DNA from: Schmidtea polychroa
Taxonomy: Eukaryota
Length of the DNA stretch: 64,000 bases
Assembly: GCA_044892525.1 (NCBI GenBank)
Contig: CM097885.1
Location: 33,482,001-33,546,000, forward strand
Reading direction: 5' to 3'
The notes under the pieces were generated by a model. That model was not told the DNA's origin. It saw nothing but the letters and a program-made list of their open reading frames with translations, and searched no databases. This document shows positions 9,000 to 36,134 of this stretch, in pieces. How positions within the stretch are numbered: position 1 is the first letter of the stretch; the number at the start of each line of letters is the position of its first letter. The translations under genes were made by a program, and so were the position numbers.

Positions 9000-9998
9000 G
9001 AAACTGGTTTTCTCCAAAATTAATTCTTTAGGATGATTTTCCAAATGGTAGATGAATGCTGATTTGATGAATCGGTTTGAGTCCACGGGTGATTTTTTGA
9101 GTAATTTACCTATAGTCGTTTAGTTTTAATATTAACTGACTACATTTTATGCGGTCCTTATATAATTAACTTACACCTTTTTGGACCATTCAAAATAGAG
9201 TGATCGTTATTTAATTAAATTTATTTACAATAAATGTGCTATTGTTAATTTTGTCTTCCTTTTACTGATTTTCTTTCTATTATTTTAATTTTTAAAATAT
9301 TTTTATTAAACTGGAAAATTTTGTGTTTTTCGTTCTATTTTTATATGAATTCTGATTGTGAGGTGTTTTCAGCTGAGAATTAAATATTTCAATGATTTAT
9401 TAAAATAATTTTAAATGATAAATAATTGACAATTTAAAATAACTTTTAAAGCATTTTTAAATTGAATTTTTTGAATTGAAATTTCTAAATTTTTAAATTA
9501 AAAAAGCTTTTATTAGTAAACTATTTTTAAATAAATATATTTTAAATATCAAAATTTTAATAAATGGTTTTTAAAATATTTTATTCAAAGCTGAAAATTT
9601 GTTTAGAAATTATACAATATTTCATTAAATAAATACTTTGAATTATGACTTTAACTTTTGAACCGGATTTAAAAAATAATTTAGAAGATGTCTTAGCAGC
9701 TTCTAAAATGTCGACCACGTCTATTGATTTCTTCATAAAGAAGCTATTTCCAATTTTGTTTTAATTATAGGTTTTATTTTTCTTATATTTTATTCCGTTA
9801 TTGTTTTTATTTTAATTTTATTTATTTTCAAGTTATTTTTGATTTTTAAAGATACTTTTTATTGTTTCCTATTGCTTTTCTCTTTTGATTTACCTATGCT
9901 ATCTTATCTTTTGTCTTAGTCCTACTTTTTAGTCCAACATAAGTCATTTTTTAGCTTCTTGAGTAGGCTTCAGTTCTAGCTTCAGTTCTAACCCAACA
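9000..9998 (-). mobile_element. LTR-like terminus/U3 fragment related to the ends at 23320 and 25503
   Basis: Shares the terminus CAGTTCTA(A/G)CCCAACA, read TGTTGGG... on the minus strand. Minus strand is A-rich, with TATATAA at ~9158-9164 followed ~25 nt later by TCAGTT (Inr-like). Left boundary uncertain. Confidence 0.5.
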
Positions 9999-10204: not shown

Positions 10205-12719
10205 CAGTCTTTCTCAAAATGGCCGAAAAAATGGGGGGGGCGTTGACGTGGGTTAAGAGGGCGATGGTAAATTTGTAATTTCATTTACTTTATATTCTAA
10301 ATTTCACTAAAATTAAAACCTACCTACTACACAATTACGAATAACTAGTTTATATTTCTACCATGTATGATGTTATAAAAACTTAAAATACTTATCATAG
10401 ATTTTGTAGGATAGCCCGCACGCCGTACCCAGTCAAGTTATAACAAATTTCTGTTAAATAACGCTATTGGAGCAATCCGGTAGCAATCGGCTGGTTCTTC
10501 GATACTTGTCCTAACTTGCTCAGTACGGTTTGAGCGTCGAAAGAGATAAACGAATTGGTACGTGTTTGTCATATTCCTGTCGGTACTTGCTGTATTTAAA
10601 TCCTATATAAAAGCTCTTAATTTTTCTTATATTTTCATTAGTGGTTTCGCGCACTATCTTTAAACAAGTATTTAAGTTCAACACTTTATTTACATATTTT
10701 TGAAAACAAAGCCATGTCGGAAGCAAAAAAGAAGAAACGTCAATACAGTGCAGAATATATTAAATATGGATTCATAGAAAATTCGATAAACCCATCTTTG
10801 CCCCTGTGTCTTCTTTGTTCAAAAACATTTTCAAACGAAGCGTTGAAGCATTCAAGATCTTTTGAATAAAATGCATCCAGATAGGAAGGACAAAAATGTA
10901 GCCTACTTTCAAGTTCTGGAAGAGAAGCAAAATGTTCAGCCAACTGTATTGAAACTCTTTTCGATGGCTTCTAAGCAAGACGATGACGGACTTCGAGCTT
11001 CATTCAATATCTCTCTGTTAATTGCTCAAACAGGTAAACCACACACCATCGGAGAAAAGTTAACTTTGCCGGCGATAAAAGAACTTATAACTACTGAGCA
11101 CCATAAACCGGCGGCAGATATAATTCGAAAAATTTCTTTGAGCAATAGTTCTGTGCAAAGAAGAATTGATGAAATGGCTGAAAACATTAAAGAGTCATTG
11201 TGCAATCATCTGAAGACTAGTCAATTTTCAATTCAGTTGGATGAGTCCACTTTACCAACTAATAAACATTGTTGTTGTCTTACGTGAGGTTATTAAAGAT
11301 GAAAAAATATGTCAGGAACTTTCATTTGCTAGAAATTTAGAGACAGACACAAAGGAGAAACCGTATTTAAACACTGGAAAGATTTTGTGATGAAAAAGGA
11401 ATTCCCTTGAAAAATATTATATCAGCTTCTACAGATGGTGAGTCAGCTATGACGTGGTGTCAAAAAGGCTTCATATCGTATCTTAAAATCAAAATTCCTA
11501 ATGTGCTTGCTGTACATTGTGTTATACATCGACAACATTTCAATAATTGCAACATGTCATCAGAGCAATCAATAAAATCCGAAACAACAATTTAAATGAC
11601 AGATTATTTAATCATCTTTGTGTCGCTAATGATGAAGATTTCAACAGATTGATCCGAAGTGAACACCGAAGTGCGTTGGCTATCAAAAGGAAATTGTCTA
11701 ACTCGTTTTTACAATCTGTTTGACTCTGTCATAGAGTTCTTAGAAAACAAAGACACAGAATTGTGCGAAAACCTCAGCATTTCAAAGAATGATATCGCAT
11801 ACCTGACAGACCTTTATACAATGCTCAATGATATGAATCTCCAACTTCAAGGCGATGATTTGAACTTAATAAAAACAAAATATGTCGTTGCTGCTTTCGT
11901 AGCCAAGCTGCTCTTACATAAGAAGGATATCGGCAGACGTGAGTTCCGTAATTTTCCCAATTTATCAGTATCCTGCAACAACGACGACTTTCTCGTATAC
12001 TGCCAACATTTAGAAAAATCTTCATTGAAAGATTCCATGACATTTTGAAATTGGAAATACCAAACTGGGTGTTAGATCCTTTTTCAAATGTCAACATTGC
12101 AATATCACCCCAGCTGGAAGAAAAACTTAGAGTTGACAATGAAGGAGTAAATAAAAATCAAATTCGAAAATGGCTACCAACAATTTTGGCTACAAAAGTC
12201 AATTCCGCAGTTGTATCATGGATTGTGGTCGATCATTCAACGATTTTTGATAGCATTCCCATCGTCATATTTGTGCGAACGTGGATTTAGCGCTGTGACA
12301 ACGCTGATTACTAAAAAGAGAAATCATTTGCAAGTTACCAAACGCGGCGACTTCCGACTGTTTTTGAGTAAATTCGAACCTTATATCAACAAATTTGTTA
12401 AAAATCATCAAATTCATCATCTCATTAGATTAGTTTAAAAAATAAAACTTATTACCTATCTGTATTGTTTCTATCACTTTGATTAAAATATATTATTAAT
12501 ATTATAAAGTTGCATTTTAATTGCTCTCACTGATAAAAATTTCTAGTTTAGAATGTAAGTTTAAACACCAGAACCGACTAATATAGCATACTATAACTAA
12601 ATGAACTAAAGTAATGAAATTATGGTTTTTAAGTTTTAGGAGTGTATAAAAAATGGGGGCGCTGAAAAATAATTGATTTTCAAAGGGGGCGGTAAAAGAA
12701 ATAAGTTTGATAATCTATG
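10205..12719 (+). mobile_element. Full-length hAT element, Buster/Charlie subfamily
   Basis: Perfect 8-bp TSD GTCTAAAG (10197-10204 and 12720-12727) with the central TA typical of Buster elements. Imperfect TIRs CAGTCTTTCTCAAA / TTTGATAATCTATG. GGGGGCG subterminal motifs. Confidence 0.92.
10714..12438 (+). pseudogene. Frameshifted Buster-type transposase (ZBED5/ZBED8/SCAND3-like family)
   Basis: Begins MSEAKKKKRQYSAEYIKYGF..PLCLLC. ORF pieces carry KPHTIGE, SLSNSSVQRRI, FSIQLDEST, STDG, HCVIHRQH, EVRWLSKG, IAYLTD, LQLQG and FPSSYLCERGFS, split by several frameshifts. Confidence 0.92.
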
Positions 12720-12937
12720 GTCTAAAGGTAATATATAAATCCGTATAATATATTAATGATTAACTTGCAAAATATTTATTAGGCTTTGTTTGACTAAATA
12801 ATTTTTAAACATTTTATTTGTATTTTATTTAAAATAGCTTTGTATTATTAGAATTTAATATCTTATCAAATTAAAAATTAAAAATCTTTTTGTTTCTTAT
12901 AATTTTAAAATAAGAAATCTAAATAATAATCCTAATT

Positions 12938-13448: not shown

Positions 13449-14383
13449 TTGTCTATATCGCTTGGTATTCTGTAAAGATTATGTATTATCACAAAAATGA
13501 TTTATTAAAATATAATCTGTTGCGTTTTATTTCATTATTTATATAAAATCGATTATCTAGTAAACCAATTACGTCTTAGAATTGATAATTTCAGATATCG
13601 AAACATTCATCAGATAAATTTACGACGGAAGTTTATAAAATCGAATTCAGTCGAATTGATTATTGTAAGAAATGTTCAACATTTTGAACTGGGCCGAATC
13701 AATGTGAACCCCGTTAAGAAAATTTTACGAATTATCATTTAGTTTTTGTTGATAACTTAATTTGTGTCTGTCTTATATATCCATTGTAAATTAAAATTTG
13801 TGTTATTGAATTTTATAGTTTTCTATGGAGTAGATAGTCATCTGATAAAAATTCGTAATAGGACCTTGTATGTTGACATAGAAATGACTGAGGTTATCGA
13901 AATTAACGTATTGTAGACGTCAGTCCTTCGAACGGCCGTCCAGAACCTGAAAAGGAATGGCATGAGGAAGTACCTACTAACGCAGGCGCTCACCTGCCTC
14001 ATGTTTTCCGCCGACATTGCTCAGTTCCAACGTGAACCATCTTCATGGGTGCGTTGTCGTGAAGCAACAGTCATTTAGCGTGTTGTGAGAATCTGATCTT
14101 TACCATCAACTTAACAGTAGAGCCATCGATTTTTCTGTCCAGTTGGATTAGTTTGTTTAAATTCACGAAACTCCATCAATAACAGTTTGATCATTTCGAT
14201 ATTCTGTTTATCGATGTTTTTACATGTTTCAATTTTATGTCAACTTCACGCTATGTTAGCATGCTATTTTTACGTATTTCTATCGCAATTCACTATTCGT
14301 TTTGGGCCAAATATCATATTTTCCCCAACAATATTAAGCCAAATTTATACAATCTGGTGTTGGCGCTCAGGGGTGTGTCATTC

Positions 14384-14954
14384 TCAAAAACCAAGACGAA
14401 TGGTAATAGGGGTAGTTGTGGTTGTTTCAACCCGACAATTAACGTTGTTCGGGACGGGGAGATCATTGGAAGTTTGATTTACGGTGGAAGAAGATGTTGA
14501 CTGAGGAGGCGCTTGACTGGTACCCATACATACGATATCAGGCGTGGGAGATTCCGACCCATGGCTTATGCAGGCCGATTTTGAAGGAAATAATAGATCG
14601 TCGCGCAAACTATGCGCGGGGAAAAAGTTGTCCTGGTCAACTGCTGGGCATTTAGGAACTCGCTTTTTGAGTTCGGCCTTCGTATAGACGTGATAAAGTG
14701 CCTCAGATTGTGACTTTATGGTGATACGCAAGTTTTGATTTTCCGCCAAAATACTGTCCCTGCCGTGTTCAAGTCTCAGAAGTTTTTTATTGACCCCCTT
14801 CATTTGAGCTGGGGTAAACCAAGTACCCTCTAAGAAATCTATCCGCTTTTTTAGTGATCTTATGTCTGCCAGTCCTTGGTTGATCGTGATATTTGTCCGC
14901 GCAAGAGAAGTACGGTTTAAGATTAGACTTGGATATACTTGATCCAGACATTTT
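14384..14954 (-). CDS. Orphan coiled-coil protein, TWF family member A (terminal exon)
   Basis: The frame of ORF 14384-14803 stays open 50 more codons upstream (KCLDQVYPSLILNRTSLARTNITINQGLADIRSLKKRIDFLEGTWFTPAQMKG...) to an acceptor gctaattcatctttttctag. The motif is shared with 17841-18241 and 33320-33740. Confidence 0.6.
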
Positions 14955-15629
14955 CTAGAAAAAGATGAATTAGCTTACGGATAACCTCATTACAACTTGC
15001 ACTGAGAAAATACATCAATCAAAGGTGTACTTTATGGCCTCTCATGCATTCATGCAACCTTCCAAAGTTGGGTATAAATTAACATCACTGCGCTACAACT
15101 ATCATAATTTTCTATTTGGGTCTTGCTATTGAGTAAGAAAATTTTGTTTGCTTTAAACTATGGTAGATGGCAGAGTTAGAATTCAAACTTAATTAAATAA
15201 ATAACAAAAGTAAACATAGAAGAAAACTCTTGTCACCCGTAAATTTTTGATTCAAGGCAGGATGTAATTAGGTATTGTTCCTCTTCAATGTTTATTCTCG
15301 TAAATTTTTTAAGAATGATTATGATTTCATTTTTAAATTAAATTTTAAATCATTATTCCAAATTTTACAGTTATTAGATTTAATTATTAACCCGAGGTTA
15401 TCGATTGTTTATTATACAAGGCTATTATTTGTTTATTCACGATGGAGTTATTATTTGTTCCTTTACACGAGATTATCATGTGTTTATATTTCTCTCTGAT
15501 CTCAGTCGCTTAAATATGCCTCAGTTTAATTCTCACTTGAATACATTTAGTGTAGATACCCATCATAGTTTACATATAATATTTTTGATGTTCGTAATTT
15601 TGGTTCGATGGTTATCTCGTCCTTAATAT

Positions 15630-15858
15630 TGGTGGGTTACTGATTATCAAATATTTTGCTCTTTAGTGCTGTTACCAGCGTAACCCAAGATACAACATTG
15701 TTTACCGCTTGATACCCGTTGAGCGATCAACGTTGGTACTGTATCAAGAGGGTGAGTGCTCGCAAAAAGTGAGCGCACTACTTGCACTGTAATTGTTGAG
15801 CACTCCTTTGGGTTCACGGACTACCGTTAGAAGGTTTATGTCGGCTTTACATGGTCCC
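15630..15858. ncRNA. Conserved structured motif, copy A (unknown family; RNA or ssDNA fold)
   Basis: Collinear with 17464-17697, with stems retained through compensatory changes. The 41-nt core 15708-15748 differs from copy B only in the GNRA loop. Confidence 0.55.
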
Positions 15859-15958
15859 TGTCGTCGGATAGTGCTCACGAAAACCTGTTAACGTGTCTTG
15901 TATTCTTCCACGGTATCAGCTCACCCCACCATTCGTATAAATCATCATTATTCATGGG

Positions 15959-16057
15959 TCAATCTGTCCTACCTTCCCTGAAGATGAGCCAACTTTTCCG
16001 TCTTCGTTGGATCTCCTTGCGTCTGACATTTAAATGAGATTCGTTACCAAAAGTTGT
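15959..16057 (-). pseudogene. Short fragment resembling the N-terminal part of ORF 18668-19168
   Basis: TFGNESHLNVRRKEIQRRRKSWLIFR versus SIGGKADEAVRLREEAEIARLRSRWIWYK; aligned by eye only. Confidence 0.35.
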
Positions 16058-16197
16058 TCATTGCCCTACTTAATTATGGTTTAAATGCTCATCGCGACAA
16101 GCTACTTAGACCGCCTTATCACACCATTCCACGAAAATTTGCAACTAGTCTAAATTTTATTCTTATATTAATTTAGCCTAAAACTAATATTTCATCG

Positions 16198-16331
16198 GAA
16201 AAATTAAAATTTTATAATAAATTAAAGTAATAAATCTTTAACCCGAATAAATAAATTAAGTTAGTGAAAAATTAAAATTTTATAACAAATTAAAGTAATA
16301 AATCTTTAACTTAAATTAATAAATTAAGTTA
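16198..16331. repeat. Tandem duplication, 68-bp period
   Basis: GAAAAATTAAAATTTTATAA(T/C)AAATTAAAGTAATAAATCTTTAAC... at 16198 and 16266. Confidence 0.85.
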
Positions 16332-17423
16332 TATTATTAAATATTTGTTTTAAATGATGACGTAACAGTCATTTACTTATCACCCCAAAGCGGTGAATTC
16401 AAATTTTTATATTTATTTAGGATTTAAATTTTTTAAATAATTATTTATGAAATTGCCACTGTATGCGACCTCGCTGAGAAAGAAGCACTAGCATCGAACT
16501 TTGTTTTCGAAATGCTTGCTTCTTCCTCAGTTGTGGCAGTCATCAGCGGCACGATCCACATTTCTACTCGTTCAGTTTAGTAATTTATATTGTTACATTT
16601 ATTTTCACTAATTTTTCAGGTACAAGTTAGCAGGAATTGTTCCCTTTTTTAGGTTCTGGTCACTCGCTGTGGCTATTTTAGTAGATTGTGGAGAGGCTTA
16701 TTTTTAAATATTCGAACGGAAAGTTTACAACTGAAATCGATTTTAAACCTGAAATAGAAGCGCTAGTCGGAGCACACGGGTATAAACTACCTAGCAAACT
16801 TTTCAGGAAAAGGTGAATTTCCATTCATTATTGGAATTTTATCGGCTCTCAAAACGAACAATTTGCACAATAAAAGTTCCTATTTTGTTTAGTTATTTTT
16901 TTCTCTTTTTTATTCATTCACTGTTATGCTTTTTTATTCTATTTATAATAATAATAATAACATTGATAGCAGTAATAATAATAATAATGATAATAATAAT
17001 CGTAGTAATAATAATAGCACTAGGGTAATAATAATAACACATGCAAAATTATAAAAATTTTTAGGATTATAAAACGACTAGCAATAACCTTAATTCTTGT
17101 TATTATACAACTTGGGGTCTTTAGGGGGAACGGTGGTTATATTTTTATAAGGTTATTTTATAAATTTATATATACATACACATACACATACATACAGATT
17201 TATATATTTAATTTAAATTATTAATTGTGTCGTCGTTTTCTGGGGGGGGGCAGTTACTAAAAATAGATTTTAGTGGTTTTCTAAAATTTTATTGGAAGAT
17301 AGGGTCATTGAAACTAAATTTAGAGATAGGGGAATCCCAAAATCAATAATTTGGTCTATAATTTTATTTTCATGAAATAAAGATAATTATTTTAATAATA
17401 TAATAAAAATAATAATAATGATA

Positions 17424-17463
<40 letters not shown>

Positions 17464-17465
<2 letters not shown>

Positions 17466-17697
17466 GTGGGTTACAGGTATTTTCAAAGTTTCTACCTACT
17501 CCTGCTGTTTCCAGCGTAACCCAGGATACAATTTATAACTGACCACTTGATACCCGTTGAGTAATCAACGTTGGTACTGTATCAAGGGTTTGGGTACTAG
17601 CAAAAACTGAGCATGCTTAGCATACTATAATTGTCTAGCACCCACTGGGGTTCACGGACTGCCGATAGAAGGCCTATGTCCGGTTTCTTTAGTCCCC
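17464..17697. ncRNA. Conserved structured motif, copy B
   Basis: Second copy of 15630-15858. Core CTTGATACCCGTTGA-GTAA-TCAACGTTGGTACTGTATCAAG at 17546-17586. Confidence 0.55.
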
Positions 17698-17840
17698 GTT
17701 ATGATAATCAACATTATAGAAAAATCACAATGTCCAGATATGAGTGTACCAGTAAAGATTTATTCATAACAACAAGATCGGAACTCATAGGGTTGTAGTC
17801 GGTTCTTTCGGTGCAGACTCTGACAAAGTAGCATGGAGGG

Positions 17841-18393
17841 TCAATTGGGCCTGACAGGCTTGGCGGACTCTGCCCGCGCCGCTTTACCCGACCGGATCTT
17901 CTTCTTCGAGATCTTCAACGCATATTCCTTCGGTTGGTGAAACAGTTCACTCATAGGTCGGATCTTGGAAATGACCTCTCGATCAAGGTCCTGTTGGTGT
18001 ACCTTGACCTCCAGCTCTCTCACTCTCAGGCGGAGGGCCCACAACTCAACTTGATCTTGGGCACTCTGGAGTTGCAATTGGGTGATGAGTTTCATCCGCT
18101 TTTTCATCTCTGCTGGCGGAAACCAGGTGCTCTCGAAATTCCGGCAATGGACCTTGATTCGCACTAACTTGGCCCGGTATTCTTCCACCTGTTGTTGCGC
18201 CCGCTCTCTATCTGTTCGCATTTCTTCCAGGAGTTTTAGCACTAAAACAAGATAACGTTAGTGAGATTCATATCAGCATCGAGTGTCGAGCATTATTATG
18301 ATCATCAATACTAAATGAATGCAATCTCTTCGTCGCAGCCCTCCTCTACGCGCACCAAAACCGAGTTCTATGAATCTTACCAAACCCTATCGG
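17841..18393 (-). CDS. Orphan coiled-coil protein, TWF family member B (13-nt micro-exon 18381-18393 plus terminal exon 17841-18241)
   Basis: Open 133-codon frame with FESTWFPPAEMK, heptad-like segments and a basic tail. Acceptor ctaacgttatcttgttttag has a CTAAC branch site. The upstream ag|CCGATAGGGTTTG|gtaag micro-exon joins in frame. Confidence 0.65.
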
Positions 18394-18667
18394 CTGTCAA
18401 TGTTACAGAAAATTGTAGTCGATAATAATAATAGTTAACGCTAAGAACTTTACCAAGAATCAAGCAATACACACAATTAAATTAATATCGACAACCAAAA
18501 CCCAATCAAACATTTAACTAAATACAAACTACTAAGACATAACGAATATTATTTTAATTCTGGGTCAAAGTTATCTAACCCAGTACACAATGTCTCAAGG
18601 TACATTAATAGCGGAGTCATTACAGGATGATTATTTTTATCACAAGACTCTAGTCATGACACAAATG

Positions 18668-19168
18668 TTAGGGGTGTTGTGCAGCGCTGGCTTTCAGTTC
18701 AGTAATCTTCTTGGCGGAGCTGGAGGTTTTTCGTGGGCGTCCGCGTTTTCTCTGCTGGCTCGGCTCACGTTGAGGCTTCCTTGGGTATTCCAGCCCACGG
18801 CGAAGGGCTGCGGTCCGCTTAGTATGGCATTGAGCTCGAGCGTAACCGTCAATATCCTCGAGCTCGCCGGCCAAGGTTGCTGTTTCGAGCCTGTGCAGTC
18901 GGTCCACCGCTCTCTTCGCATCGTCGAAGGCGTCGCTCAGAGCCAATGAAGTAAGATTGATATATGGCTCCACCTTCGGGATCACCGGGACCACATTCTG
19001 GTAGGTCCAATCATGAATCTTATACCAGATCCATCTAGACCTTAGCCTGGCGATTTCTGCTTCCTCCCTCAGTCGGACGGCTTCGTCTGCCTTCCCGCCG
19101 ATACTGTCGGGGCTCCAGTCATTTGACGAGTGACCTTCTTGTACTTTCCTTGGCTCAGTGTTGGGCAT
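18668..19168 (-). CDS. Orphan 166-aa protein with a C-terminal AT-hook (RKRGRPRK)
   Basis: Intact ATG-to-stop ORF, much more GC-rich than the host background. The ATG lies 2 nt after an acceptor-like ttttatcattacag. RKRGRPRK is a canonical AT-hook core. Confidence 0.65.
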   Translation of the reverse strand: MPNTEPRKVQEGHSSNDWSPDSIGGKADEAVRLREEAEIARLRSRWIWYKIHDWTYQNVVPVIPKVEPYINLTSLALSDAFDDAKRAVDRLHRLETATLAGELEDIDGYARAQCHTKRTAALRRGLEYPRKPQREPSQQRKRGRPRKTSSSAKKITELKASAAQHP

Positions 19169-19503
19169 GGCTGTAATGATAAAAGAGAGGTTAAAACGAA
19201 TCCTCGTTCTCCCATTTACGTTCGGTTACTCTAAGACGTTCAATGTACAGTTACATTTAAGATCACCGCGACCCGCATCTCAACGATATCTTAGGTAGGG
19301 AAAATGGACCTAAAATGCTAATTAATTTCCCCTTTCGATTTATTCTTTAATTTAATTTAAGTTGGCTTGAGACTTACGAAATCCAAGTTTATAAGTCTCG
19401 GTTACAGAATTGCAGTTCGTATGTTTAAAGTGGAAATCCATGAGCTTAGTTTTGATGAACTACTGGTTGATACAGTAGAAGTGAGCGTTTAAAATTTTAT
19501 GAA

Positions 19504-19638
19504 TTAAACTTTTAATAGTAGTTGTTTAACTCATGCAAAGATTTAATTTAACTATTTATACCAATCTATATTAATTCAAATTTTAAACTATTAATAGTGG
19601 TTGTTTAAATCATTCAAAGATTTAATTTAACTATTTAT
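19504..19638. repeat. Tandem duplication, 79-bp period
   Basis: TTAAACT(T/A)TTAATAGT(A/G)GTTGTTTAA..CAT.CAAAGATTTAATTTAACTATTTAT at 19504 and 19583. Confidence 0.85.
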
Positions 19639-20625
19639 TCAAATATTATTTTTCATTTTTTAGAATTCTCCATTGATAATTTTTTTGGCAAAGTTTATGC
19701 TACTAGGACCCACTATGGGAAGCGGATGTTGCAAATTGTATGAATTTGTATTCAACTCTTTGTGAATCCCTGACCATAGTGGTTGTAAGTGGCCCTTTCA
19801 TCAGCTGGTGCTCGATAGTAAGTTAAAATTTTTATCTTTTGTAGTTGCATAATTTCAGGAATGGGTCTCTAATTCCTCGGTTTTTAGTATTTCAATCATT
19901 CACCGTATTGGAGTTATTACTGTTTAGTGGAATCCAAAGTATGGCTATACTCCCAATTCGTGGGCATTTAGGTGAAAATTTCGGGGATTTCAGGATTTTA
20001 CTGATCTGTGCCACAGGAATTTAAAGTGAAAATTGGGACTTGAGTTTTTCTGAGTAGTCCCCTTCTAGACATTCCTTAATATTACCGGTAAGATTCTTTT
20101 CGTAAACAAAATTTTTGATTTTATTAAATACATTTTCGCTTTTGTTGATTCTTATTTAAGTAATTTTGTTTGACGTAAATTAATAATTATCGAGTAATTT
20201 TGTTAACTCCTCATGAGAACCTATATAGTTAGTAATCATGACTTGTTATTATTCCTTACCTTTGGTCCTACTGGGTGGGTATTCCGATTCAGACCGTTAC
20301 TTTCGGGGACTAGGTCCCGTGGCTTACATGCGATCTACTTCTGGGGTAACAAGGGTTAAATTCGCATGGGTGAGATAGGTTTTATCGAAAGATTAGAGTT
20401 TCTACTGACATGGTCGATGGCGATTGGCTCGTGTAGTGGAGAGTATGTGCCACCTATTCGGTCAGTTAGGAGTAGTTCGTAGGGGGTACCCCTTGGTTTG
20501 CAGGGTTGTTACTAATAATAGAAGCGGTATTATTGGTCCAACTTTGTTATGAGGGAAAGGAAAAATCGATACTGTCGGTTTTGAACTTTCCTATTAATAG
20601 TAACGTTTTATTGATAATCATGTTA

Positions 20626-20626
20626 C

Positions 20627-20686
<60 letters not shown>

Positions 20687-20960
20687 TAAAATAATAACAA
20701 TAATAATAAAATAATAGTATTAGTAATAGTAATAATAATGGTAATGATAATAATAATGATAATAACAATAATACTAATAATAACAGTACTATTAATAATA
20801 ACCATAATGATAATTATGGTAATAGTAATGGTAATAATAATGATAATGCTAATGATAATAATAATAATAATGATAATAATAGTAATAATAGTAGTGATAT
20901 GATAATAACCATAATAATAATTATAGCAATGGTAATGGTAACAATAATAATAATGCTAAT
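20626..20960. repeat. (AAT)n / degenerate (RRT)n microsatellite
   Basis: Pure AAT run followed by AAT/AGT/GAT/GGT variants. It explains the poly-I/poly-L ORFs at 20506-21059. Shorter tracts at 16946-17035 and 17395-17463. Confidence 0.95.
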
Positions 20961-23379
20961 GATGTTACTAGGAATGATAGTAGGAGTTGTTGTCTTAGAA
21001 TAATTCAATTGACGACTATATGATTCGAAGGGGTAGTTATAGAAGATTTTTACAATCAAAATATATACATATCATTATCATAATTATGGGAAAAAATACG
21101 GTTGAGTTTTAAAAATTTATAAGTATTTATATAATATATACTACAGTAAACACAAAATCTTTACGGAATTGATTAAGGGTTATCCTATAATTAGGCAAAT
21201 AGACATGAACCAAAAATCATATTTTATTTTATAGTATCTATATAACTAGTATATGTATGACAAAAACTTTGAACTAATTTAGGCATTTAAGGGCATTCAT
21301 ATGGCCCCAAAATGAGGACTCTGTTTTAATTCCAAACAGTTATATAACCGATGCTTACTAGGTAAGGCAATAAACATAAAAATACTTTGAAATAACTAAA
21401 GTGATGATTTATAATTATTCGAATAGATATGAAGTAAGGATTATATTTTAATTTTTAAAGTATTTACCTAGCCAGTATATAGTATGTATGACGATGAACA
21501 GGAGAACTTTCATGGAATGATCTGAGAGTCATTATATAATAATTAGTCACATTCATATAAATGTTAATAGATAAATTCTTATAACACGATTCTAGAGGGT
21601 GGGGTTTAATAATAAATCTCTATTAACCAAACAATAGGGCTACCGGGTATATGTTTAGCGAACGTCCTTGGGTAGGGCAGATTCTAATATATACATTTCT
21701 AAAATAGTCAGGTGATGTTGATACTAGTAAGTATATGTAGAAAATCTTTTATCTAGTACCAAGTTAATAATTAGTATAGGCATATATCTCCCTGAAATAC
21801 ATTCTAATGATATCGGTTTGGAATATAATGTCCACATTAACCTAAAATTATATGAAGCACAAGTTTGGCTCGCATGGGTTTAAAATCGTTATCCAAGAAT
21901 AATTACACCATCGCATTTAAATTAGATTCGGGCTTTTTGATTATAAACTTTCGGATTTAAATATGATTACCAGTAATCTCGATAAGAGTAAATTAATAAT
22001 ATTTGATATCAAAAATATTAAACATTTGAATAGTTTGTGTAATTAGCCGACTATTTGAGAACTTTCGTGATCATTTAAGTCTGGGATATTTCCCGTTTAG
22101 ATTTTCTTAATGATGTATTCCTATAGAATAGTTGAGTGTGTATTTTAGATATGTCGTTTACCGGAAGGTCGAATTAATTAAAATTTTCCTACTTTCCCGA
22201 CTCAACTGAATACGGTACGATAGGCCTTATTGTATTATGTTTCCCGCGATTACTAGCCCAAATTTTATTTCGTCCGCATAGTCCCTGCGACTATGCCAAC
22301 TACCTGAATGGATTTACCGCCCTACTCCTGGTTAGAAACCATTTGTTCGTGGCGACCTTCCGGTTAAAAAAAAATGAAATTTTGTGCATGTAGGGTCGTA
22401 GACCCGATTGTGTGCGTGTGGACTATCAGTTGGAAACAAGGCTGATCAGCGTCGCGAATACAACCCGTCGACGACGCTGGTCATTCTTGTTACGTAATAG
22501 TAAAATGATGATAAAAAGGACAAAATTAATAATTAATATAATTTAGCATAAAATAACAATTATATAATCGATAAAAATCAATCACCCTTACTTTCAATAC
22601 TTGGTGTTTCAGAAAAAATTTTTGGCATACAAAAATATCTAAATTGTGACGAAAATGCGTCGGTATATATACCTGTTTTGTACACGTGTATGTATTGATG
22701 CATTAAAACAAACTCGAATTCTTTTTATTCCAGAATTTTCTATTTTGTAATTTTGATATTTTTAATGGCAATTTTTGTGCCATAATTTTTGTTTTTATTT
22801 TTAAATTTTTATTCTTTAATTATTTTTTGTTAATTTTACGTCCATGATGGATTTGGAACGGTTCCAGAAAATTCCATATTACTTTTAATTTAATTTTTAT
22901 TTTAACTGATGTTCTCTGAATTTCTTTTTAAGATTTTTTTATTTTTATTACTAATTTATTTACTTTTTCTAAATTTTATTGTTTAAGGTAGCTTTTATGA
23001 TGGTCATCGCCATTTTTATGGAATGTTCTGGGTTTTTCTGGAATTTTTTACTGTTTTTACCGTCTTTTAAGTTATTCGAGTTTGTTTTTTGTGACTCTAT
23101 GTTTATTTGGTTATTTTTGAGTTCGATGTTGCATAACTTCTTGCTTTTGGTATAATTTTATTTAATTTCTGTGTTTATGCTTTTGTTGTTTTCCCCTTTG
23201 ATTAATATTGTTTATTTGGTGTATTTTTTTAATATTTAACTACACTTTTTGCATGTTGTGTACCTACGCATTTCAGCCACAATTAGAAGTTTGGGTCTAG
23301 AAATCAGTTCTAGCCCAACAATAATAATAATAACGATAATAATAATAATAAATGTAAATTTAGATGCTTATAAGATTAC

Positions 23380-24535
23380 CACATATGGGGGAGGGGTCAT
23401 TTACGAAAATTTATGAATTTATATTTTTAAGTGAAATATAATTTAACTGTCTATGAATATGATATAATTCAGTATACCTACGTAATAGTTAATGGCTACA
23501 TGATTTGAGGGGGGTCGGTTAAATAAAAAATACCAGTTATATTTTTAAAGGTAATATAAGTTGAATATATCTGAAAACAAATTAAATTAATACTTTTGGG
23601 TAATCATTAATGACTATATGATCTGAGGGGGGTCATTTATGGAAATATACAATTTATAGTTTTAAATATAATATAAGTTAAATATATATTAAGATAAGCT
23701 AATTTAGTATATTTAGGTGGTGGTTGATGACTATATGGTTTATGGGGGGGGTCTTTAATGAAAAATTTTCAACTATGATTTTAAAAGTAATATAAGTTAA
23801 GTATATATATAAAATAGTCTAAGTTAATGCTTTAAGGGAGTGGTTATATGATTTAAGAGAAAGTTATTTATGGAAAAATTATAAATTATAGTTTTATAAA
23901 TTTGGTATCTGTACATATATATGTTAATTTATATTGTTTTCGACTATTCGGTAACTTAGGGGGTAGTTAGGGAAAGTTTAATAATTTATAATTTTATGGA
24001 TTTATTTTCAATTTATAAGTAAGTTAAATCAGCACTCTTGACATAAATTTGAGCTACCATACTACTTGAGGGAGGCATCTGTGAAAGAAGGTAAATCATA
24101 CTTTTATAAGTTCTAATATGCTTATATATGCTTTATATTATTAACATTAGCCCCTTTTGATTATGATATAACTTAGGGGGGGGTAGTAATGAAAGATTAC
24201 AAATAATACTTTATAAGTTCAAAATGTGCAATTATAGTTTGGAATATTTCTTTGAACATGTGTTTTGGCTATTATACAACCTGAGAGGGTATTTAGGGAA
24301 AATTTTATAAATTATAATTTTATGAGTTTATTATACATGTATGTATTTTAGATTAATATTTTTAACATTGATTTTGACTATTATACAATTTGAGGGAAAA
24401 AAAATAAAAATTTTCTTAGAAAATTATAATACATACTTAAGAGAATCTAGTATATATATATATATATATATATATAACTTATATTAATAATCCTAAGGTT
24501 TTTCTTATGGCTACACCTCTTAGGGGTGGGACAGT
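23380..24535. repeat. Diverged tandem array of ~11 units, mostly ~105-120 bp, each anchored by a G-run
   Basis: Anchors TGAGGGGGGTC-like at ~23386, 23506, 23623, 23740, 23852, 23956, 24066, 24173, 24282, 24390 and 24520, followed by similar AT-rich blocks (...TAATATAAGTT...). Confidence 0.85.
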
Positions 24536-25124
24536 TGTACTTGAAAGTCTATATTTTCCTTGGTTTTGATTTATGCTTTATGTTGAAATAATATTTATGC
24601 TTGCAAGTTATCCATGTAGCCTTGTTTTGGTTATGATTGAGAACAATTTTAACGTAGATCTATTTTGTGGATCCCTATATCATATCTAGAGAAATTTATG
24701 CCTGTAAAATATCATTTCAACAACTTTTGAGTCGAATGAAAAGCACTTTTAGTGGAGAATTGTTTTTGTTATGAATCTATATATTGTAATTACATAACAT
24801 TTGTGTCGACAATTTACTTTTTATAGCTATTCAACTTAGTGTAGAATAATGTGAAGATGTTGCCCGAACTTATAAGTTATAGATATAATATTAGTAGTTT
24901 ATAGATAAAGAGACTTTGTAAATATGTCTACGGGAGTTTGCACATACCAAGACCATTACGATAGAGAAATTTAGTTTGCATCAAAATAGGTTATTTTGTG
25001 GGCATCTATAGATATTAGTTCGCTTACCAGTGCGATTGAGATTATGTCATCTTAGGTCCTACTCATCGCATGAACTTTAGGTTGCAGTATTCTTACAGGG
25101 AATAGTTCAGAATTTTTGAGTCTT

Positions 25125-25503
25125 TAATGATGGATTTTTATGAATTGTTCTGGATTTTTATTCGAAATATCGATATAATTTTCTTTTCGTAAGATTTTAT
25201 GGAGATTTTCTTTAATTTTCTTTTTGAATTTTTTCTAATCGCCTTTATTCGAATTTGTTTTTTGTTGTTTTATGTCTTTCGGTTATATTTGAGTAGGTTT
25301 TCGTGTAATACTTCTTGCTCGTGTTTTATTTTATTTTTAATTCAGATGTTTTATTTTTGGGTATATCATCTCTATTATTATTGTTTACTTGGTGTTTTAT
25401 ATATTTTTATTTAAGTAAACTTAATACTGGGTATGCGTGTTGTGTACTGACACATTTCGTCCCATTCCTAACTTTGGGTTCAGAAATCAGTTCTAGCCCA
25501 ACA
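25125..25503 (-). mobile_element. Second, diverged copy of the LTR-like terminus (homologous to ~22990-23320)
   Basis: AGAAATCAGTTCTAGCCCAACAATA is identical at 23299-23323 and 25482-25506. Collinear similarity extends ~350 bp to the left. Confidence 0.7.
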
Positions 25504-25505
25504 AT

Positions 25506-25960
25506 ATGATGCATAAGATGGCTGATTCATGGTTACTATCGTTAAAAGTGATGGATGTAAATTCAACCGACCAGACGTGGATTTTGATAATCAATCGAAG
25601 ATTATGTGATAAAATCGAGGACAAAAAGCTGGAATATATAAATCCGATGACGATGGAACAGGATGGAAGCGTTACATCTTTTACAGTAAGTCAAACCCAG
25701 AGGCGTGTCTGGATATTAGCAGTTCTTATGACGGTATTTATTTTTGGCTGACGGCCACCCACTAAATTGTAGCACCAATATTGCTTATGACATGCATTTA
25801 GTGGTCAATTAAATAATTATGCCCGATTACGAAGGGAAAGGTGTAGAATCAAAAGTATTTACAGGACAATTCGAGTACATGCATTAAAAGCACTGAAAAA
25901 ATGTAAAAATAATGGAAATGAAAGGAGCATAAGGGCTAGGAAATTATTTTGGACTGGATC
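25506..25960 (+). pseudogene. Mutator-like transposase remnant
   Basis: Frameshifted pieces LDISSSYDG..WLT.(G)H, DMHLVVN*IIM, SKVF and ALKALKK occur in the order of the DIxVSYDGTWxxRGH...VVDYxIMSK...DGDSK...ALRxL pattern of Mutator-like transposases. Confidence 0.4.
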
Positions 25961-32183: not shown

Positions 32184-32801
32184 TTCATAAACTCATATAG
32201 GGTCTGGGTTGTGAGGAGCTTCATTTGCAACAATGTATAATATAGCATTTGTTTTGGAAAATAAAAATAAAAGTCGAGTTAGTGGCGGTTCAACATTAAA
32301 AAAAGAAAGTGGTTGGAGAGCGAGCTTCTTGGTCACTCTTACGGATAGAGCAAGTTAAAAGTGTTTTCATTTTTTAAATTTCAAAATTATTTCAGTTTTA
32401 ATCATAAATTGGTAAAACAACTTTTGTTTTTTTTTCTTCTGACAACCTTTGAAAACTGCTGAGATATAGCATTTACCAATTATTAATAGTCAATATGATA
32501 TTGGGGTGATCTTTGTTGTGAAAAAAAGAATAACAAATAACAGGAAAAATAAGACAAATGAAGAGAATGTTTCTTTTTAGAAGAATTGATTGTTTAAATA
32601 TTGTTGGGATATTAAGAAATTGTCGTTAGGAATTTGTTTCATTCTGCCTCAATCAAATCTCACAAAATAATTTTATTCAGACAAAAATTGATTACATTTT
32701 TATTTTCCAAAATCTAACAAATGCTAAGATACTCCATAGATATCACTTTCAAATCAAAAATACAAATCTGGTTAAACTAACTTTATTCGAATAAATCGCT
32801 T

Positions 32802-33000
32802 TGTTGAGGATACCTAAATAACAAATAGTATATTAAATAAGTAAATTTGGAGGAAGATCGTCATGACAAATGGGACGATCTATGGAAACTCCAAGAAGAA
32901 AACGGAAGTAAAAAGAAATGAAAAATCAGAAAGATAAATCAAATAAAAGAAAAAAAACAAGAAATTAAAACAAAGGTCTAATTATCGGTGATTACATTAA
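32802..33000 (+). mobile_element. 5' fragment of an LTR related to the LTR at 34633
   Basis: TGTTGAGGATACCTAAAT..AAATAG...ATCGTCATGACAAA is shared with 34633 onwards. A probable opposite-orientation LTR end (TGTTGGG) lies at ~32602. Confidence 0.7.
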
Positions 33001-33319
33001 TATATTTTATTAATTATTATTCAATTGTAGACATGTATGGATTTTTATATTTATTAGTTTGCAATGTACTCAATTTAATTTTTATTTCTGATTACTCTAG
33101 CACTATAAATCTCTTGACTTCCAGTTGAAAGGACTATCTCAACCTATTTAGAATTTTTATTTATTGTTATCTTTAATACGACGGATTCCTAAATGGTATC
33201 GTCCTTCGCTTTTAATCAAATATTAAATTCTCTTCAGACAACCAATTAAAACAATAACAACTTTATTTTCATAATTAGGCAAGCGATTAAACAATCATAT
33301 ATAATAAAATGTTTCATTT

Positions 33320-33740
33320 TTACTGAGATGCATTTGTGCTCATCTTCAATTCCCGGAAGCGCCTTCTTTTTAGTTTTACTGGCCTCGGTTTACAAGACCT
33401 TTTGTCAATTGTGAGAACTGTGAGCATTTTTGACAGTAAGGCTACAATTGTCGGAAAGAGCTTGTTCTGCCGACTTCAGCCTCTATGTGGGTTCCTATTA
33501 CATTTCCAGAATTCTTTGAGCTTGCTCTCGGATCGGGATCTTAAGATCACGAAAGATTCCCTGATCCTCGACCCGAAACTTCTCCATGACTCAATCTTCT
33601 GATTTAATTTGCGCATATGTTCCGGTCGGAACTATGTCACTTCCATTCGACGGGATTTCCGTAACATCGATTCTACTCTTCTAATCCCGCTTCTGAAGTA
33701 TATCAGACTACCTCCTGCCAGAATCTTTATATTGGATCTA
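33320..33740 (-). pseudogene. TWF family member C, two in-frame stops
   Basis: RMEVT*FRPEHMRKLNQKI, with TAG at 33632-33634 where members A and B have TGG. The frame runs ~140 codons with two stops and has a basic tail. Acceptor gactaacttgattttag with CTAAC branch lies at a similar distance upstream as in A and B. Confidence 0.6.
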
Positions 33741-34632
33741 CTAAAATCAAGTTAGTCAAATTTAAGTTAATATCGCATATTGTATTCGTACTACCATCTA
33801 TATTTTGCGATAATGAAATGTTATTAAAAAGTAATTTTGTTTGTTTTAATTGTCTGAAGAATTACAACTCTTATAACAATAATTTTGTTTTAATTTACAA
33901 TATTCGCAGTTAAAATCTATTTTATTTCTACATATCCTTTCACTCTCAAAGTCAATGAATTTTATTGCTGTCTTTAAAATTTGTCTATCTCTCTCTATTG
34001 TTAAATTCTTACTTATTAAAGATTTTATTTGATTTAATTTCATTGCTGACAAATGGGTCATTTCGTTTAAATTGAATTTTAAATAAAGCTATAACTAATT
34101 CAAAGACACAAAAAATAGATATGAAAAAGCAAATGTTTATTTTTTAAACATTTCAAACATGTCGTGATTTCTTTTGGAACTTTTCACTCTGTTAATTGTG
34201 GCTTTGATCGGCCTCTTGGTCCATTTTTCAATCGTCTCGCTGCTGTCCTTCAAATCCTCGTTTTACCTACTCTAGATTTATCATAATGAAGAAAACAAAT
34301 CGGAAACTGAAGTCCACAGGATATCAAATCTAAAAAAATAAAAGTTCGTATCTGTTATATCTCTGATGTCAACGCATTTCAAGTCAAACTCAAACTATGG
34401 GAAAGTTAATTATCAAAAAGTAACACAACGCATTTTTTATGTCTAATTGAATATAAAACTGATACAAATTTGGATAAAATTTGCATATATTGTAGCTCAT
34501 GAACATGAGCACAAATTATTTTGAAACCCATTCAATTCTCATGCAGTTCTCATGCAGTTCTATTCTGAAACATATGCAGGCTGAGTGATCAAAAATCTTT
34601 TAAATGAACTATAGCAATGTCAAGTATCAAGT

Positions 34633-35334
34633 TGTTGAGGATACCTAAATGATAAATAGCATAATAAATAAACAAATTACCTGAGGGAAAATCGTCATGA
34701 CAAACTGTGAATATGGAGCAAAAAAGGAAAATGGAAAACAAAATTATCTCAAGTATTGCAAATGGGGCAAGCTATAAAAAGGAAGACAAAGAAGTTAGAA
34801 TACGAGAGAAAAAGTAAGACAAAATTAGAGACGAAAGGAGAGGCAAAACTAAAGTTAGAAAGAGACAAAACCGAGACAACAAGAGAAGAAAAACGTGAGT
34901 TAAATTTAAAGAGTTCAAAAGGAGAATCAAAGGAAGAATTAAAAGGAGCAATTAAGGGGAGAATTAAACCTGGTTCAGAACAGAATGAAACGAGAAGTGA
35001 CGAGAATCTTTTGTAAAATTGAATATAAAGTGGAAGTGAAGTAAATAAATTTGTGGTCAAAGCAAATAGATAATTGATCAAAATACCCTGCAATTGAGTA
35101 GTTGACGGCTAGTGATTATTGTTGTGGTTTCAGAAAGAGCTATTCTTCACGTAGTATCGCAATAAGCTTTGTGTGATTAATTGGTTGTAATTGGAATTTG
35201 TGTGATCTAGTGTGAATATTAATAAAGCTTATCGTGTTCGAGATAGTTAATTTGTGATTTAATAAAACACGCTTTGGAGTCAGAGTAAAAAAGTTTGAAT
35301 TTACAAACATTGTCACCAACCCAATAACCCAACA
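34633..35334 (+). mobile_element. 5' LTR (702 bp) of a Ty3/Gypsy-type element
   Basis: TGTTG...CAACA termini, purine-rich U3, TATAAA at ~35024, AATAAA at 35221 and 35261. Followed directly by a PBS-like site and gag. Confidence 0.85.
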
Positions 35335-35339
35335 TATTT

Positions 35340-35357
35340 TGGTGAGCCTGTCGTGAT
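35340..35357 (+). promoter_or_regulatory. Primer-binding site (TGGTGAGCCTGTCGTGAT)
   Basis: TGG 5 nt after the LTR end. Resembles tRNA-Arg-type PBSs (TGGCGAGCC...); the tRNA identity is not verified. Confidence 0.65.
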
Positions 35358-35513
35358 CAAAAGTTGGTGAAAAATAAATTGTTGAAAGGACAATTGTGAA
35401 AATAAAGTGTGATAAATTAAAATTATTAAAGTTAATTGTGAAAAGGTAAATTATTTATTGTAGTAATAATTTGAGATTTAGATTTGTGCAATTTGAGAAA
35501 ATAATTTATTAAA

Positions 35514-36134
35514 GTGAATCGATATTATTTACGTAGCAAGAATAAAAAGAAAGCTATGATTAGTGAAGATTTGCCAGTTTCAGTTGTTAAAGAAAATAAT
35601 GATTTTGCAAGTTGTCAAAGATTGCCAGTAGAGCAATATGGAGGAGATCCAGTTATTTTTGTTGATTTTAAGAGCGATTACTATATGTATGCAACGGCTT
35701 ATGGATGGTCTCAAGCAATCATGATTCAAAGATTACTCTTATATCTTAAAGGAACAGCTAGAGAGGTTTGGCAACAAATCGTCAGGAAAACAATCGGCAA
35801 TGATTGGGCCAAGTTGAAAAATGCATTGGCTGCTAAACTTATTGGAGGAGATATTAAAAGATTAATGCGCCAAAAATTGTATAATAGAGTTCAAAATCAA
35901 AATGAAACAGTGAGCGAATTTGCGTATCATTTATCGACTCTTGCCAGCAAATCCTTTGAAGAAGATGCAAAACAACCAGGATTAGCTCAACAGATACAGG
36001 AGCTGATTCAAGACCAATTTTTGTCAGGAGTAAATAAAGAGATCAAGATGGCATTATGTTGTGTAGACTATGACAATTTTGATGAACTAGTTAAAAAGGC
36101 GATGAAAGTTGAATTGAATCTAAAGAGCTGTTAA
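35514..36134 (+). CDS. gag: Ty3/Gypsy Gag, capsid region only
   Basis: 206-codon open frame (first ATG 35556) with LKGTAREVW, W..LK.AL, NRVQ..NETVSEFA..L..LA and DQFL.G retrotransposon-gag motifs. No zinc knuckle or pol follows. Confidence 0.85.
   Translation: MNRYYLRSKNKKKAMISEDLPVSVVKENNDFASCQRLPVEQYGGDPVIFVDFKSDYYMYATAYGWSQAIMIQRLLLYLKGTAREVWQQIVRKTIGNDWAKLKNALAAKLIGGDIKRLMRQKLYNRVQNQNETVSEFAYHLSTLASKSFEEDAKQPGLAQQIQELIQDQFLSGVNKEIKMALCCVDYDNFDELVKKAMKVELNLKSC

Follow-up and report, generated by a model that had tools for sequence, protein, structure and literature searches.

Two nested units with LTR-type ends and antisense orphan genes in the planarian Schmidtea polychroa: candidate solo LTRs of a Ty3-type element

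The window analysed here is a 64,000-nucleotide stretch of the Schmidtea polychroa genome (assembly GCA_044892525.1, contig CM097885.1, positions 33,482,001 to 33,546,000), numbered from its first base. It contains two units on the + strand, one inside the other, both reading TGGTGGG...CCCAACA: the inner unit X1 (17464..23320; 5,857 bp), a candidate solo LTR of presumed + sense, and the outer unit X2 (15630..25503; 4,013 bp of its own sequence), which is split by X1. Each is bounded by identical 4-bp flanks, ATAA at 17460-17463 and 23321-23324 for X1 and ATAT at 15626-15629 and 25504-25507 for X2, and the insertion point of X1 lies within an AAT tract of X2. The left ends of the two units are 75% identical, and the right ends, at 23320 and 25503, share 74% identity over ~250 bp and 71% over ~380 bp. 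A sequence-only reading of the same DNA had described one terminus in diverged copies at 9998, 23320 and 25503, and had taken the latter two for the paired LTRs of a single ~12-kb element at 13700-25503. CCCAACA is present at all three positions and the copies at 23320 and 25503 are related, but the terminus at 9998 resembles them over only ~40 bp. Further, the single element has no matching target duplication, and 23320 and 25503 instead close two separate nested units on the right; each of these has a left end and a 4-bp duplication of its own. The left ends at 15630 and 17464 had been overlooked, as had a terminus at 14330 and inverted copies of a structured motif at 25647-25861 and ~13906-14050.

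The terminus at 14330 (14200..14330, +) is of the right-hand type, reads CCCCAACA followed by ATAT, and shares 67% of 123 aligned bases with the 23320 end (z 9-10). The terminus at 9998 (9960..9998, +) is short, ends in CCCAACA before ATAA, and matches the other right ends at 29 of 38 positions. No left partner was found for either. Five further candidate LTR ends (13703, 15231, 22488, 8744 and 20621) were rejected, as they show no homology among themselves, and so were four candidate primer-binding sites (PBSs). Those at 17464, 22483 and 14354 correspond to none of the tRNAs in the searched table, and the one at 8742 has only a loose likeness to tRNA-Lys.

The minus-strand orphan ORFs described earlier are real: A, B and C exceed the length expected by chance, which 3, 21 and 0 of 1000 shuffles, respectively, reach. 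ORF A (18671..19168, -; 166 aa) begins with an ATG two bases behind a splice acceptor and carries an AT-hook-like RGRP motif, which scores below the cut-off against Pfam AT_hook (E 0.0065); its structure model consists of two long helices at low confidence (pTM 0.26). None of the 199 candidates scored was a homologue of A, its atlas matches were all <0.9, and it does not match the profile of the B/C family. ORF B (17844..18239, -) is a 132-aa exon behind a branch point and acceptor, with AATAAA at 17764. ORF C (14387..14950, -; 188 aa), in which the nearest ATG is in a different frame, lies outside X2, in the older sequence that received X2, and is modelled as a helical hairpin with pLDDT of ~80-97 over residues 1-100. 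ORF D (33314..33736, -) is interrupted by stops and likewise stands behind a branch point and acceptor. In all, each of the four ORFs has an acceptor before it, three of these acceptors with a CTAA branch point, and none of the ORFs has a Pfam match above the cut-off.

B, C and D belong to one orphan family, with a helical hairpin and usually a basic tail. Similarity is significant between B and C (BLASTP E 1e-5; 0/1000 shuffles) and between C and D (0/1000 shuffles), and not significant between B and D when compared pairwise (116/1000 shuffles); against a family profile built without window sequences, B, C and D score E 5.9e-9, 3.5e-22 and 4.8e-5, respectively. The family is multi-copy, being found in P0001/P0002, to which B is 81-85% identical, and in six gene models (7 outside proteins). 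In 5 of the 6 gene models the family segment is fused to unrelated host-type domains, which is what an intronic repeat would give. A strong basic cluster is missing in C, P0005 and P0007. Searches for further relatives matched 1 of 275 proteins of near length and 2 of 8000 longer proteins scored, both already known; the atlas search gave no usable match, and PDB sequences and Foldseek returned generic coiled coils only, none at E 0.001. No fusion to gag or pol was found among the outside proteins searched, and 0 of 596 pattern matches in the metagenome and 0 of 127 in viral contigs were confirmed as related loci. In the sequencing data, 7 of the 15 runs listed contain part of 17470-20600 (best share 0.43), and none of those listed that contain it is an RNA run.

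The orientation of these ORFs bears on a reading close to the sequence-only one, in which a single giant LARD-like non-autonomous LTR element occupies 10-12 kb of the minus strand, one LTR beginning at 23320 or 25503 and the other at 14330. This would turn A, B and C into sense cargo between the LTRs, and all of these termini do read TATTGTTGGG on the minus strand and are homologous over at least 130 bp. Yet the two presumed LTRs agree at only 67% of 123 bases although the ORFs between them are open, 13703 has no matching duplication with any right end, there is no PBS, and the two nested duplications are left unexplained, which makes such an element decidedly unlikely. The minus-strand TGTTGGG, previously taken for the start of an LTR, is more likely the mirror of a + strand LTR 3' end, and the polarity is probably the reverse of that proposed earlier, with the element sense on + and the cargo antisense.

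The DNA also contains the other modules described earlier: tandem duplications, AAT tracts and G-box units. AAT tracts (+) lie in X1 at 20627..20954 and in X2 at 16945-17016, 17393-17463 and 23321-23351; an array of 10 G-box units of ~105-118 bp occupies 23364..24480 (+), and weaker single units at 17100-17173 and 21011-21054 (+; E 0.004 and 0.04) each stand behind an AAT tract. The two tandem duplications, of 68 bp (16198..16331) and 79 bp (19504-19662), are not homologous. The + strand remnant reported at 16.4-16.95 kb, with an intron-like stretch at ~16569-16619, also holds up: inside X2, 16691..16954 (+) resembles, in decayed and inverted form, the 3' part of gene B together with its 3' UTR (DNA alignment z 9, 0/500 shuffles); no protein-level signal was found in it. 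A full inversion of 15866-16944 relative to X1 was considered and discarded, its support being limited to this B-like 3' piece. The segment 16435..16560 (-) forms a long, single-copy hairpin resembling a pre-miRNA (z -7.3 on the minus strand, -4.8 on the plus), with no match in Rfam; Rfam does match mir-753, which is of planarian origin, in the window. In X1, a TATA box at 22662 and ATTAAA at 22702 (22662..22707, +) lie 40 nt apart, ~650 bp before the right end, and from their sequence could mark a candidate U3/R/U5 junction; neither a TATA box nor a poly(A) signal was found in the right part of X2. X1 and X2 correspond in their ends, in the G-box units and in the inverted B-like piece; otherwise their interiors are not colinear.

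The structured motif is repeated as described before, at the left edge of X1 (copy 1, 17464..17705, -; fold z -4.1 minus, -2.7 plus) and of X2 (copy 2, 15630..15865, -; fold z -3.3 minus, -0.5 plus). The two copies are 75% identical and covary, so that a ~240-nt RNA structure is conserved at the left edge of both units, which would be the LTR edge if these are LTRs. Two more copies are diverged and inverted: copy 3 directly outside X2 (25647..25861, +; covariance model E 0.009; local alignment z 13, 0/300 shuffles), which alone folds no better than shuffles, and copy 4 inward of the 14330 terminus (about 13906..14050, +; z 4.5, 1/500 shuffles against copy 2), for which nhmmer gave no match and no fold signal was seen. 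The combination of right-end homology with an inward motif at 14330 requires an inversion or inverted symmetry. A coding origin of the motif is not indicated, an excess at third positions being absent (9, 19 and 14 of 55), and it matches no Rfam family. Its patterns were not found in viral contigs (0), and the 38 stretches retrieved from the metagenome match neither the RNA model nor the window. Those 38 stretches resemble bacterial palindromic repeats.

As to what the motif might be, an RRE on genomic RNA fits poorly, because the motif folds better antisense and sits downstream of the AATAAA of B. HDV-like and hammerhead readings were ruled out on inspection and by pattern; no Rfam ribozyme was found, and the hammerhead-like pattern matches at 16530 and 16546 lie in a simple hairpin. 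The motif could also be the 3' tail, tRNA-like and terminating in CCA, of a retroposed RNA with (TTA)n (SINE-, retroplasmid- or mascRNA-like), or an element-encoded primer, given that a 7-bp stem and ACCA close both young copies, 1 and 2 (z -3.3 and -3.1), and that (TTA)n follows copy 1. Against this, the CCA is the mirror of the unit's opening TGG, ARAGORN reports no tRNA, a canonical T-arm is missing, the stem is invariant and so draws no support from covariation, copies 3 and 4 lack it, and copy 2 is without a tail. We regard a tRNA-like origin as highly improbable.

The fourth ORF connects this gene family to a recognisable retroelement, as the sequence-only reading had noted in placing a cargo-gene homologue upstream of a PBS and gag; homologue, PBS and gag all proved real, and the link to Ty3 gag is supported through this homologue at 33.5 kb. 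A candidate 5' LTR of 2,733 bp (32602..35334, +), flanked by ATAT and reading TGTTGGG...CCCAACA, holds D in antisense and is directly followed on the + strand by a predicted PBS for tRNA-Trp (35340..35357, +; 16/18 bases) and a truncated Ty3-type gag (35505..36134, +; 209-aa remnant, Pfam Retrotrans_gag E 2e-8). The PBS, defined against the planarian tRNA-Trp 3' end in the supplement of PMC7962491, is the sole such site in the window. At the ends 32602 and 35334, 11 of the 12 outermost bases form an inverted repeat, and no better partner lies within 12 kb; 32602 may nonetheless not be the LTR start, because another 11/12 match to this end occurs in the window at 38760. The unit contains an internal repeat of ~70 bp (32801-32870 and 34632-34704), and a 702-bp LTR from 34633 is the alternative. 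No DNA similarity between X1 or X2 and this unit extends past the end heptamer, and their tie to gag-pol, through D and these heptamers, is an indirect one.

Left and right ends in the window can be combined into 27 pairs. The same 4 bp stand on both sides in 2 of them, namely the nested pairs, whose ends are homologous. Keeping in mind that all ends share a preference for ATAT or ATAA, a flank match would arise by chance about 1 time in 4, and for X1, inside a microsatellite, 1 in 3 by phase, so this target bias weakens the duplication criterion. The bias leaves some room for a mosaic of decayed repeats, in which paired ends and duplications are partly chance and D merely neighbours a short-LTR Ty3 element; the interiors that do not align and the orphan ends at 9998 and 14330 would suit it. 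However, X1 matches X2 at both ends (71-75%), and ATAT plus the end heptamer occurs 4 times in the window against 0.05 expected, and we give a mosaic little credence.

The nature of the ends and the absence of known mobility genes bear on the class of element. X1 ends in TG...CA with an inverted repeat in 9 of the first 12 bases; it has no TIR longer than ~10 bp, and in neither unit do inverted repeats extend past ~10-20 bp (z 0.3 and -0.5 over 150 bp). Neither PBS nor PPT was found at X1 or X2, GTAACCC is absent from the planarian tRNAs of the searched table, and no gag or pol lies between the ends of either unit. In agreement with the earlier reading, Pfam scans of all 34 stop-free frames of at least 55 aa at 13.2-26 kb, with read-through scans of about half the region, gave no match to RT, integrase, transposase or recombinase, nor to the pPolB, Rep-helicase, RT or recombinase genes of DIRS/Ngaro, Polinton, Helitron and Penelope/Terminon elements. 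A Ginger-like or other TIR DNA transposon proper was set aside, as it would carry a DDE transposase and TIRs tens to hundreds of bp long, and neither was found. Ginger elements do have TG...CA ends and 4-bp duplications, and X1 and X2 might be non-autonomous, cargo-carrying DNA transposons of this kind, moved in trans by a Ty3-type integrase. The missing PBS and PPT and the hint of inverted symmetry at 14330 speak for this, whereas the short inverted repeats, the missing transposase and the same gene family preceding a PBS and gag speak against it; on balance we think it unlikely.

The reading we favour, with some reserve, takes X1 and X2 for solo LTRs from two diverged subfamilies of a planarian Ty3/Metaviridae element, whose very long U3 would hold antisense accessory genes. 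It is supported by the TG...CA ends with only ~10 bp of inverted repeat, by the recurrence of end heptamers, ATAT flank and gene family directly before a tRNA-Trp PBS and gag, by the TATA box and ATTAAA that lie 40 nt from each other towards the right end of X1, and by the acceptors preceding A-D in a multi-copy family. It is weakened by the position of C outside both units, by interiors that are not colinear and lack DNA likeness to the gag-linked unit, and by the inward motif at 14330. In this sense the earlier proposal of nested pieces with LTR-type ends and spliced orphan cargo inside an LTR is supported. The unusual length of X1 and X2 (~6 and ~4 kb) would most likely reflect the small genes housed inside them.

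Retroviral genes encoded in U3 or antisense are known from MMTV sag, foamy virus bel and HTLV HBZ, which resemble the present case in having coding sequence within or driven from the LTR and differ in their much shorter LTRs, usually single ORF and different virus family. Among planarian elements, Burro, as reportedly described by Grohme in 2018, has AAT-rich ends, as does the region here. Burro/GYPSM1 is a giant Ty3 element of >30 kb in total with an internal part of up to 25 kb, hence with LTRs of several kb, and the available part of the review on it also describes tandem repeats, accessory ORFs and a roughly 5,000-aa gag-env-pol polyprotein with BIR/MATH/BCL2/ankyrin domains (PMC6431247). 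Host type, multi-kb LTRs (candidate ones here), tandem repeats and accessory ORFs are shared; in contrast, the window has no giant polyprotein and no BIR, MATH, BCL2, ankyrin or env domain, and that part of the review puts no ORFs inside the LTR (PMC6431247). By analogy in LTR size and host, a Burro/Ogre-like giant element is plausible. The plant Ty3 elements Retand, Grande and RIRE2 carry antisense ORFs of unknown function, one with an SMC-type domain, together with tandem arrays and an antisense promoter of their own, and a Tat/Rev-like role has been proposed for them (PMC11963269, PMC7264820). Antisense accessory ORFs and tandem arrays also occur here, but the plant ORFs lie between pol and the 3' LTR and include a TRP28 domain, whereas A-D have no Pfam match above the cut-off, are unrelated in sequence and are apparently spliced and LTR-internal, in units bounded by target duplications. 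CERV of C. elegans Cer1, compared here by description, is an accessory protein of an animal Ty3 element as well; its mRNA is spliced and it has coiled-coil parts. It differs in its Cys loop and in having an export role that was tested, and in the part of its description available it is not presented as antisense or LTR-internal (PMC10309623). The literature searched, which excluded the primary Burro paper (this may report them), describes no ORFs inside planarian LTRs.

If X1 and X2 are solo LTRs, an integrase would have used ATA(T/A) sites to insert full-length copies, choosing for X1 a site in X2's AAT tract, and LTR-LTR recombination would afterwards have deleted gag-pol. On the + strand the element would begin with a U3 of 5 kb, followed by a short R near 22.7 kb and by a U5 rich in T, and A and B would be made from spliced antisense mRNAs running towards the left edge of the LTR, in which the structured RNA might serve as a 3'-end, stability or protein-binding element. 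The proteins A and B/C/D could be nuclear regulators of the element; as a tentative best guess, B/C/D would be an oligomeric RNA-binding factor like Rev, Rex or CERV (helical hairpin plus Arg/Lys tail), and A would bind AT-rich DNA. It is possible, though we hold this only tentatively, that a Ty3 lineage took into its U3 both a conserved structured RNA and a spliced antisense cassette of paralogous regulators with helical hairpin and basic tail, that its solo LTRs are self-contained expression units, and that it nests into its own AAT tracts. Factors from the solo LTRs would then act in trans on full-length elements or the host, and the units would splice into host transcripts. The B family and the 240-nt structure would form a testable protein-RNA pair for the role of antisense accessory ORFs in LTR elements. 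Solo LTRs are usually regarded as non-coding remnants. Should X1 and X2 prove to be solo LTRs that carry open, spliced genes, the great LTR length of giant Ty3 elements would be accounted for, and a regulator family may be dispersed in many copies through planarian genomes, where it would also contaminate gene models.

The region lies in AT-rich eukaryotic DNA with short introns, between a TMEM50/UPF0220 gene on one side and an INSIG gene on the other, and our evidence was drawn from the 64-kb window itself, from published work and from a small number of proteins outside it. The host is probably a planarian, to judge by the mir-753 match and the primer binding site described below. The heptamer TG(G/T)TGGG or its complement is present at 13 sites in the window, where about 3 would be expected; five of these ends are left-type and eight right-type, and four have ATAT on the outside against an expectation of 0.05. 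Among the 27 pairs in which a left end precedes a right end, two have identical 4-bp flanks and none has identical flanks of 5 or 6 bp. The two pairs are nested: an inner candidate solo LTR of 5,857 bp (X1, 17464-23320, flanked by ATAA) is inserted in an AAT tract of an outer one with 4,013 bp of its own sequence (X2, 15630-25503, flanked by ATAT). The double flank match has a background probability of about 0.003; given the shared preference of these ends for ATAT or ATAA, however, a value of about 1 in 4 is fairer. The stronger argument for pairing the ends in this way is their homology, the left ends of X1 and X2 being 75% identical (176/234) and the right ends 74% (185/249) and 71% (270/381). 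The inverted repeat between both ends of one unit is about 10 bp, with no significance over 150 bp. The sequence-only reading had started the element at 13700, a position that lacks a matching target duplication. For neither of two further termini, at 14330 (67% identical to the 23320 end over 123 bases) and at 9998 (29/38 bases alike), does the window contain a left partner. The observed features are real. We also noted that the segment holding ORF C is bounded by a perfect 8-bp inverted repeat (14331-14338 and 15622-15629) that includes the ATAT target sites, which may reflect a longer target preference.

Four orphan ORFs lie on the minus strand: A (18671-19168, 166 aa) and B (17844-18239, 132 aa) in X1, C (14387-14950, 188 aa) outside X2, and D (33314-33736), which is broken by stops. 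The lengths of A, B and C are beyond what shuffles allow, and a splice acceptor precedes each of the four. B is homologous to C (E 1e-5; 0/1000 shuffles), as is C to D (0/1000 shuffles), and the pairwise comparison of B with D was not significant (116/1000 shuffles). A matched none of the other three and no homologue of it was found; it has a sub-threshold AT-hook match. When 1.84 billion proteins were searched with a profile, seven matched. One is P0001, which shares 81-85% identity with B; the others are six single-member gene models, five of which have the domain fused to host-type domains unrelated to it (ribosomal L21, CH, SNF, GDC-P and CRAL-TRIO), as expected from gene prediction running into an intronic repeat. 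In P0003-P0006 and P0008 the fusion is an artefact of annotation or else reflects genuine splicing into genes of the host. A profile built from the six outside models alone recovered C (3.5e-22), B (5.9e-9) and D (4.8e-5), with no other window locus below E 1. Neither the 1.84-billion-protein search nor a second one, with 8000 candidates scored, revealed a family member fused to gag or pol. C is predicted to form a helical hairpin with a disordered tail, a model for which structure searches gave no specific fold match. Most members of the family carry a basic cluster (7-10/14 residues), which is weaker in C, P0005 and P0007 (5/14). In its DNA, though not as protein, the plus-strand remnant in X2 that was previously read as spliced resembles the inverted 3' end of B together with its UTR.

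D lies upstream of a PBS-Trp (35340-35357) and a truncated Ty3-type gag remnant (35505-36134), both on the plus strand. The PBS at 35340 agrees at 16/18 bases with a planarian tRNA-Trp 3' end from the PMC7962491 supplement. For the right end at 35334, the best inverted partner within 12 kb is 32602 (11/12 bases), a site preceded by ATAT, and 32602-35334 is accordingly a candidate 5' LTR of 2,733 bp with D antisense inside. The same end has one further 11/12 site, at 38760, and between the pair of TGTTGAGG starts called related before, similarity is significant over only about 70 bases; because of these two observations, it is possible that the LTR measures only 702 bp, from 34633, with D simply upstream of it. 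X1 and X2 do not align with the 2,733-bp candidate beyond the heptamer. X1 carries a TATA box at 22662 and ATTAAA at 22702, about 650 bp before its right end, and these signals together with the layout of D, PBS and gag suggest plus as the sense strand, which would place the cargo antisense in a long U3.

A structured motif is found at 17464-17705 (copy 1) and 15630-15865 (copy 2), and the minus strands of the two adopt similar folds (z -4.1 and -3.3; on plus, -2.7 and -0.5). Between them, 6 of 59 pairs changed on both sides and none is broken (8/500 shuffles), and substitutions affect 17/117 paired vs 45/127 unpaired positions, a contrast inflated by deriving the structure from the same copies. 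Two older, inverted copies (25647-25861 and 13906-14050, both plus) fold poorly alone; across all four, 10/26 pairs changed on both sides (0/500 shuffles), a control that related sequences can pass. The motif has no Rfam match, and its CCA-ending stem, a mirror of the bases with which the unit starts, is probably no tRNA mimic. Two mutually unrelated hairpins, one in X2 (16435-16560, minus, 110 nt, z -7.3) and one in X1 (19700-19810, plus, z -3.6), are possible small-RNA precursors; in a folding scan, 20 of 153 segments 150 nt long fell below z -2.2 on some strand. The stretch 32800-32949 (minus), downstream of D and close to where the gag-linked unit has its left edge, folds strongly (z -4.8, 12 shuffles); its position is that of the motif in X1, its sequence not similar. 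Mir-753, a planarian family, has a match above the Rfam gathering score at 38122-38183 (plus), although this palindromic stretch may derive from a repeat.

Other remnants accompany these units. A Ty3 gag-pol remnant with deletions, in which RT and RNase H are matched, occupies 6080-8100 (plus), with no link shown to the 9998 terminus. One hAT-type transposon copy (41100-43790, minus) has Dimer_Tnp_hAT and Spin-doc zinc-finger matches, and a broken one (about 10200-12720, plus) is similar to it by tblastx. A decayed frame at 36930-37530 (plus) looks by eye like the C-terminal part of a protein-primed/Polinton-type PolB, with no Pfam match, and broken frames at 26900-27550 (minus), apparently in an INSIG intron, look EF1-alpha-like (processed pseudogene), with no matching Pfam entry. 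There are also a palindromic stretch at 9366-9597 and two small dispersed repeats (8081-8245 with 32038-32186; 2615-2876 with 54218-54483). A bacterial REP-type-like family of palindromic repeats of about 140 bp, with copies about 72-94% alike, occurs in metagenome contigs (L001, L003, L004, L008, L016, L017, L020, L021, L023, L024, L027, L029, L033 and L036) and has no relation to the present finding.

Insertion at ATA(T/A) sites, followed by nesting within an AAT tract of the same family and removal of gag-pol by LTR-LTR recombination, is standard Ty3 behaviour and fits the ends, and we regard this course of events as somewhat probable. Spliced antisense mRNAs would encode small nuclear regulators, a reading that agrees with the basic tails, the splice acceptors, the AATAAA that follows B and the precedents in plants. 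Our best guess for the B family, albeit a doubtful one, is a Rev/Rex/CERV-like role. Its weak point is the motif, for which the antisense strand gives the best fold and which is located beyond the poly(A) signal of B. The literature searches yielded no description of such an arrangement for planarians; ORFs within Burro LTRs may, however, already appear in the supplements of the Burro paper (Grohme 2018). In a comparison with the literature (PMC6431247, PMC11963269, PMC7264820, PMC10309623, PMC8532177 and PMC11410931), the cargo would work like the antisense accessory ORFs of Retand-type elements (PMC11963269, PMC7264820), except that here the ORFs appear to lie inside the LTR. The observation is real, and the arrangement is probably a variant on the known accessory-ORF theme, distinguished by this placement.
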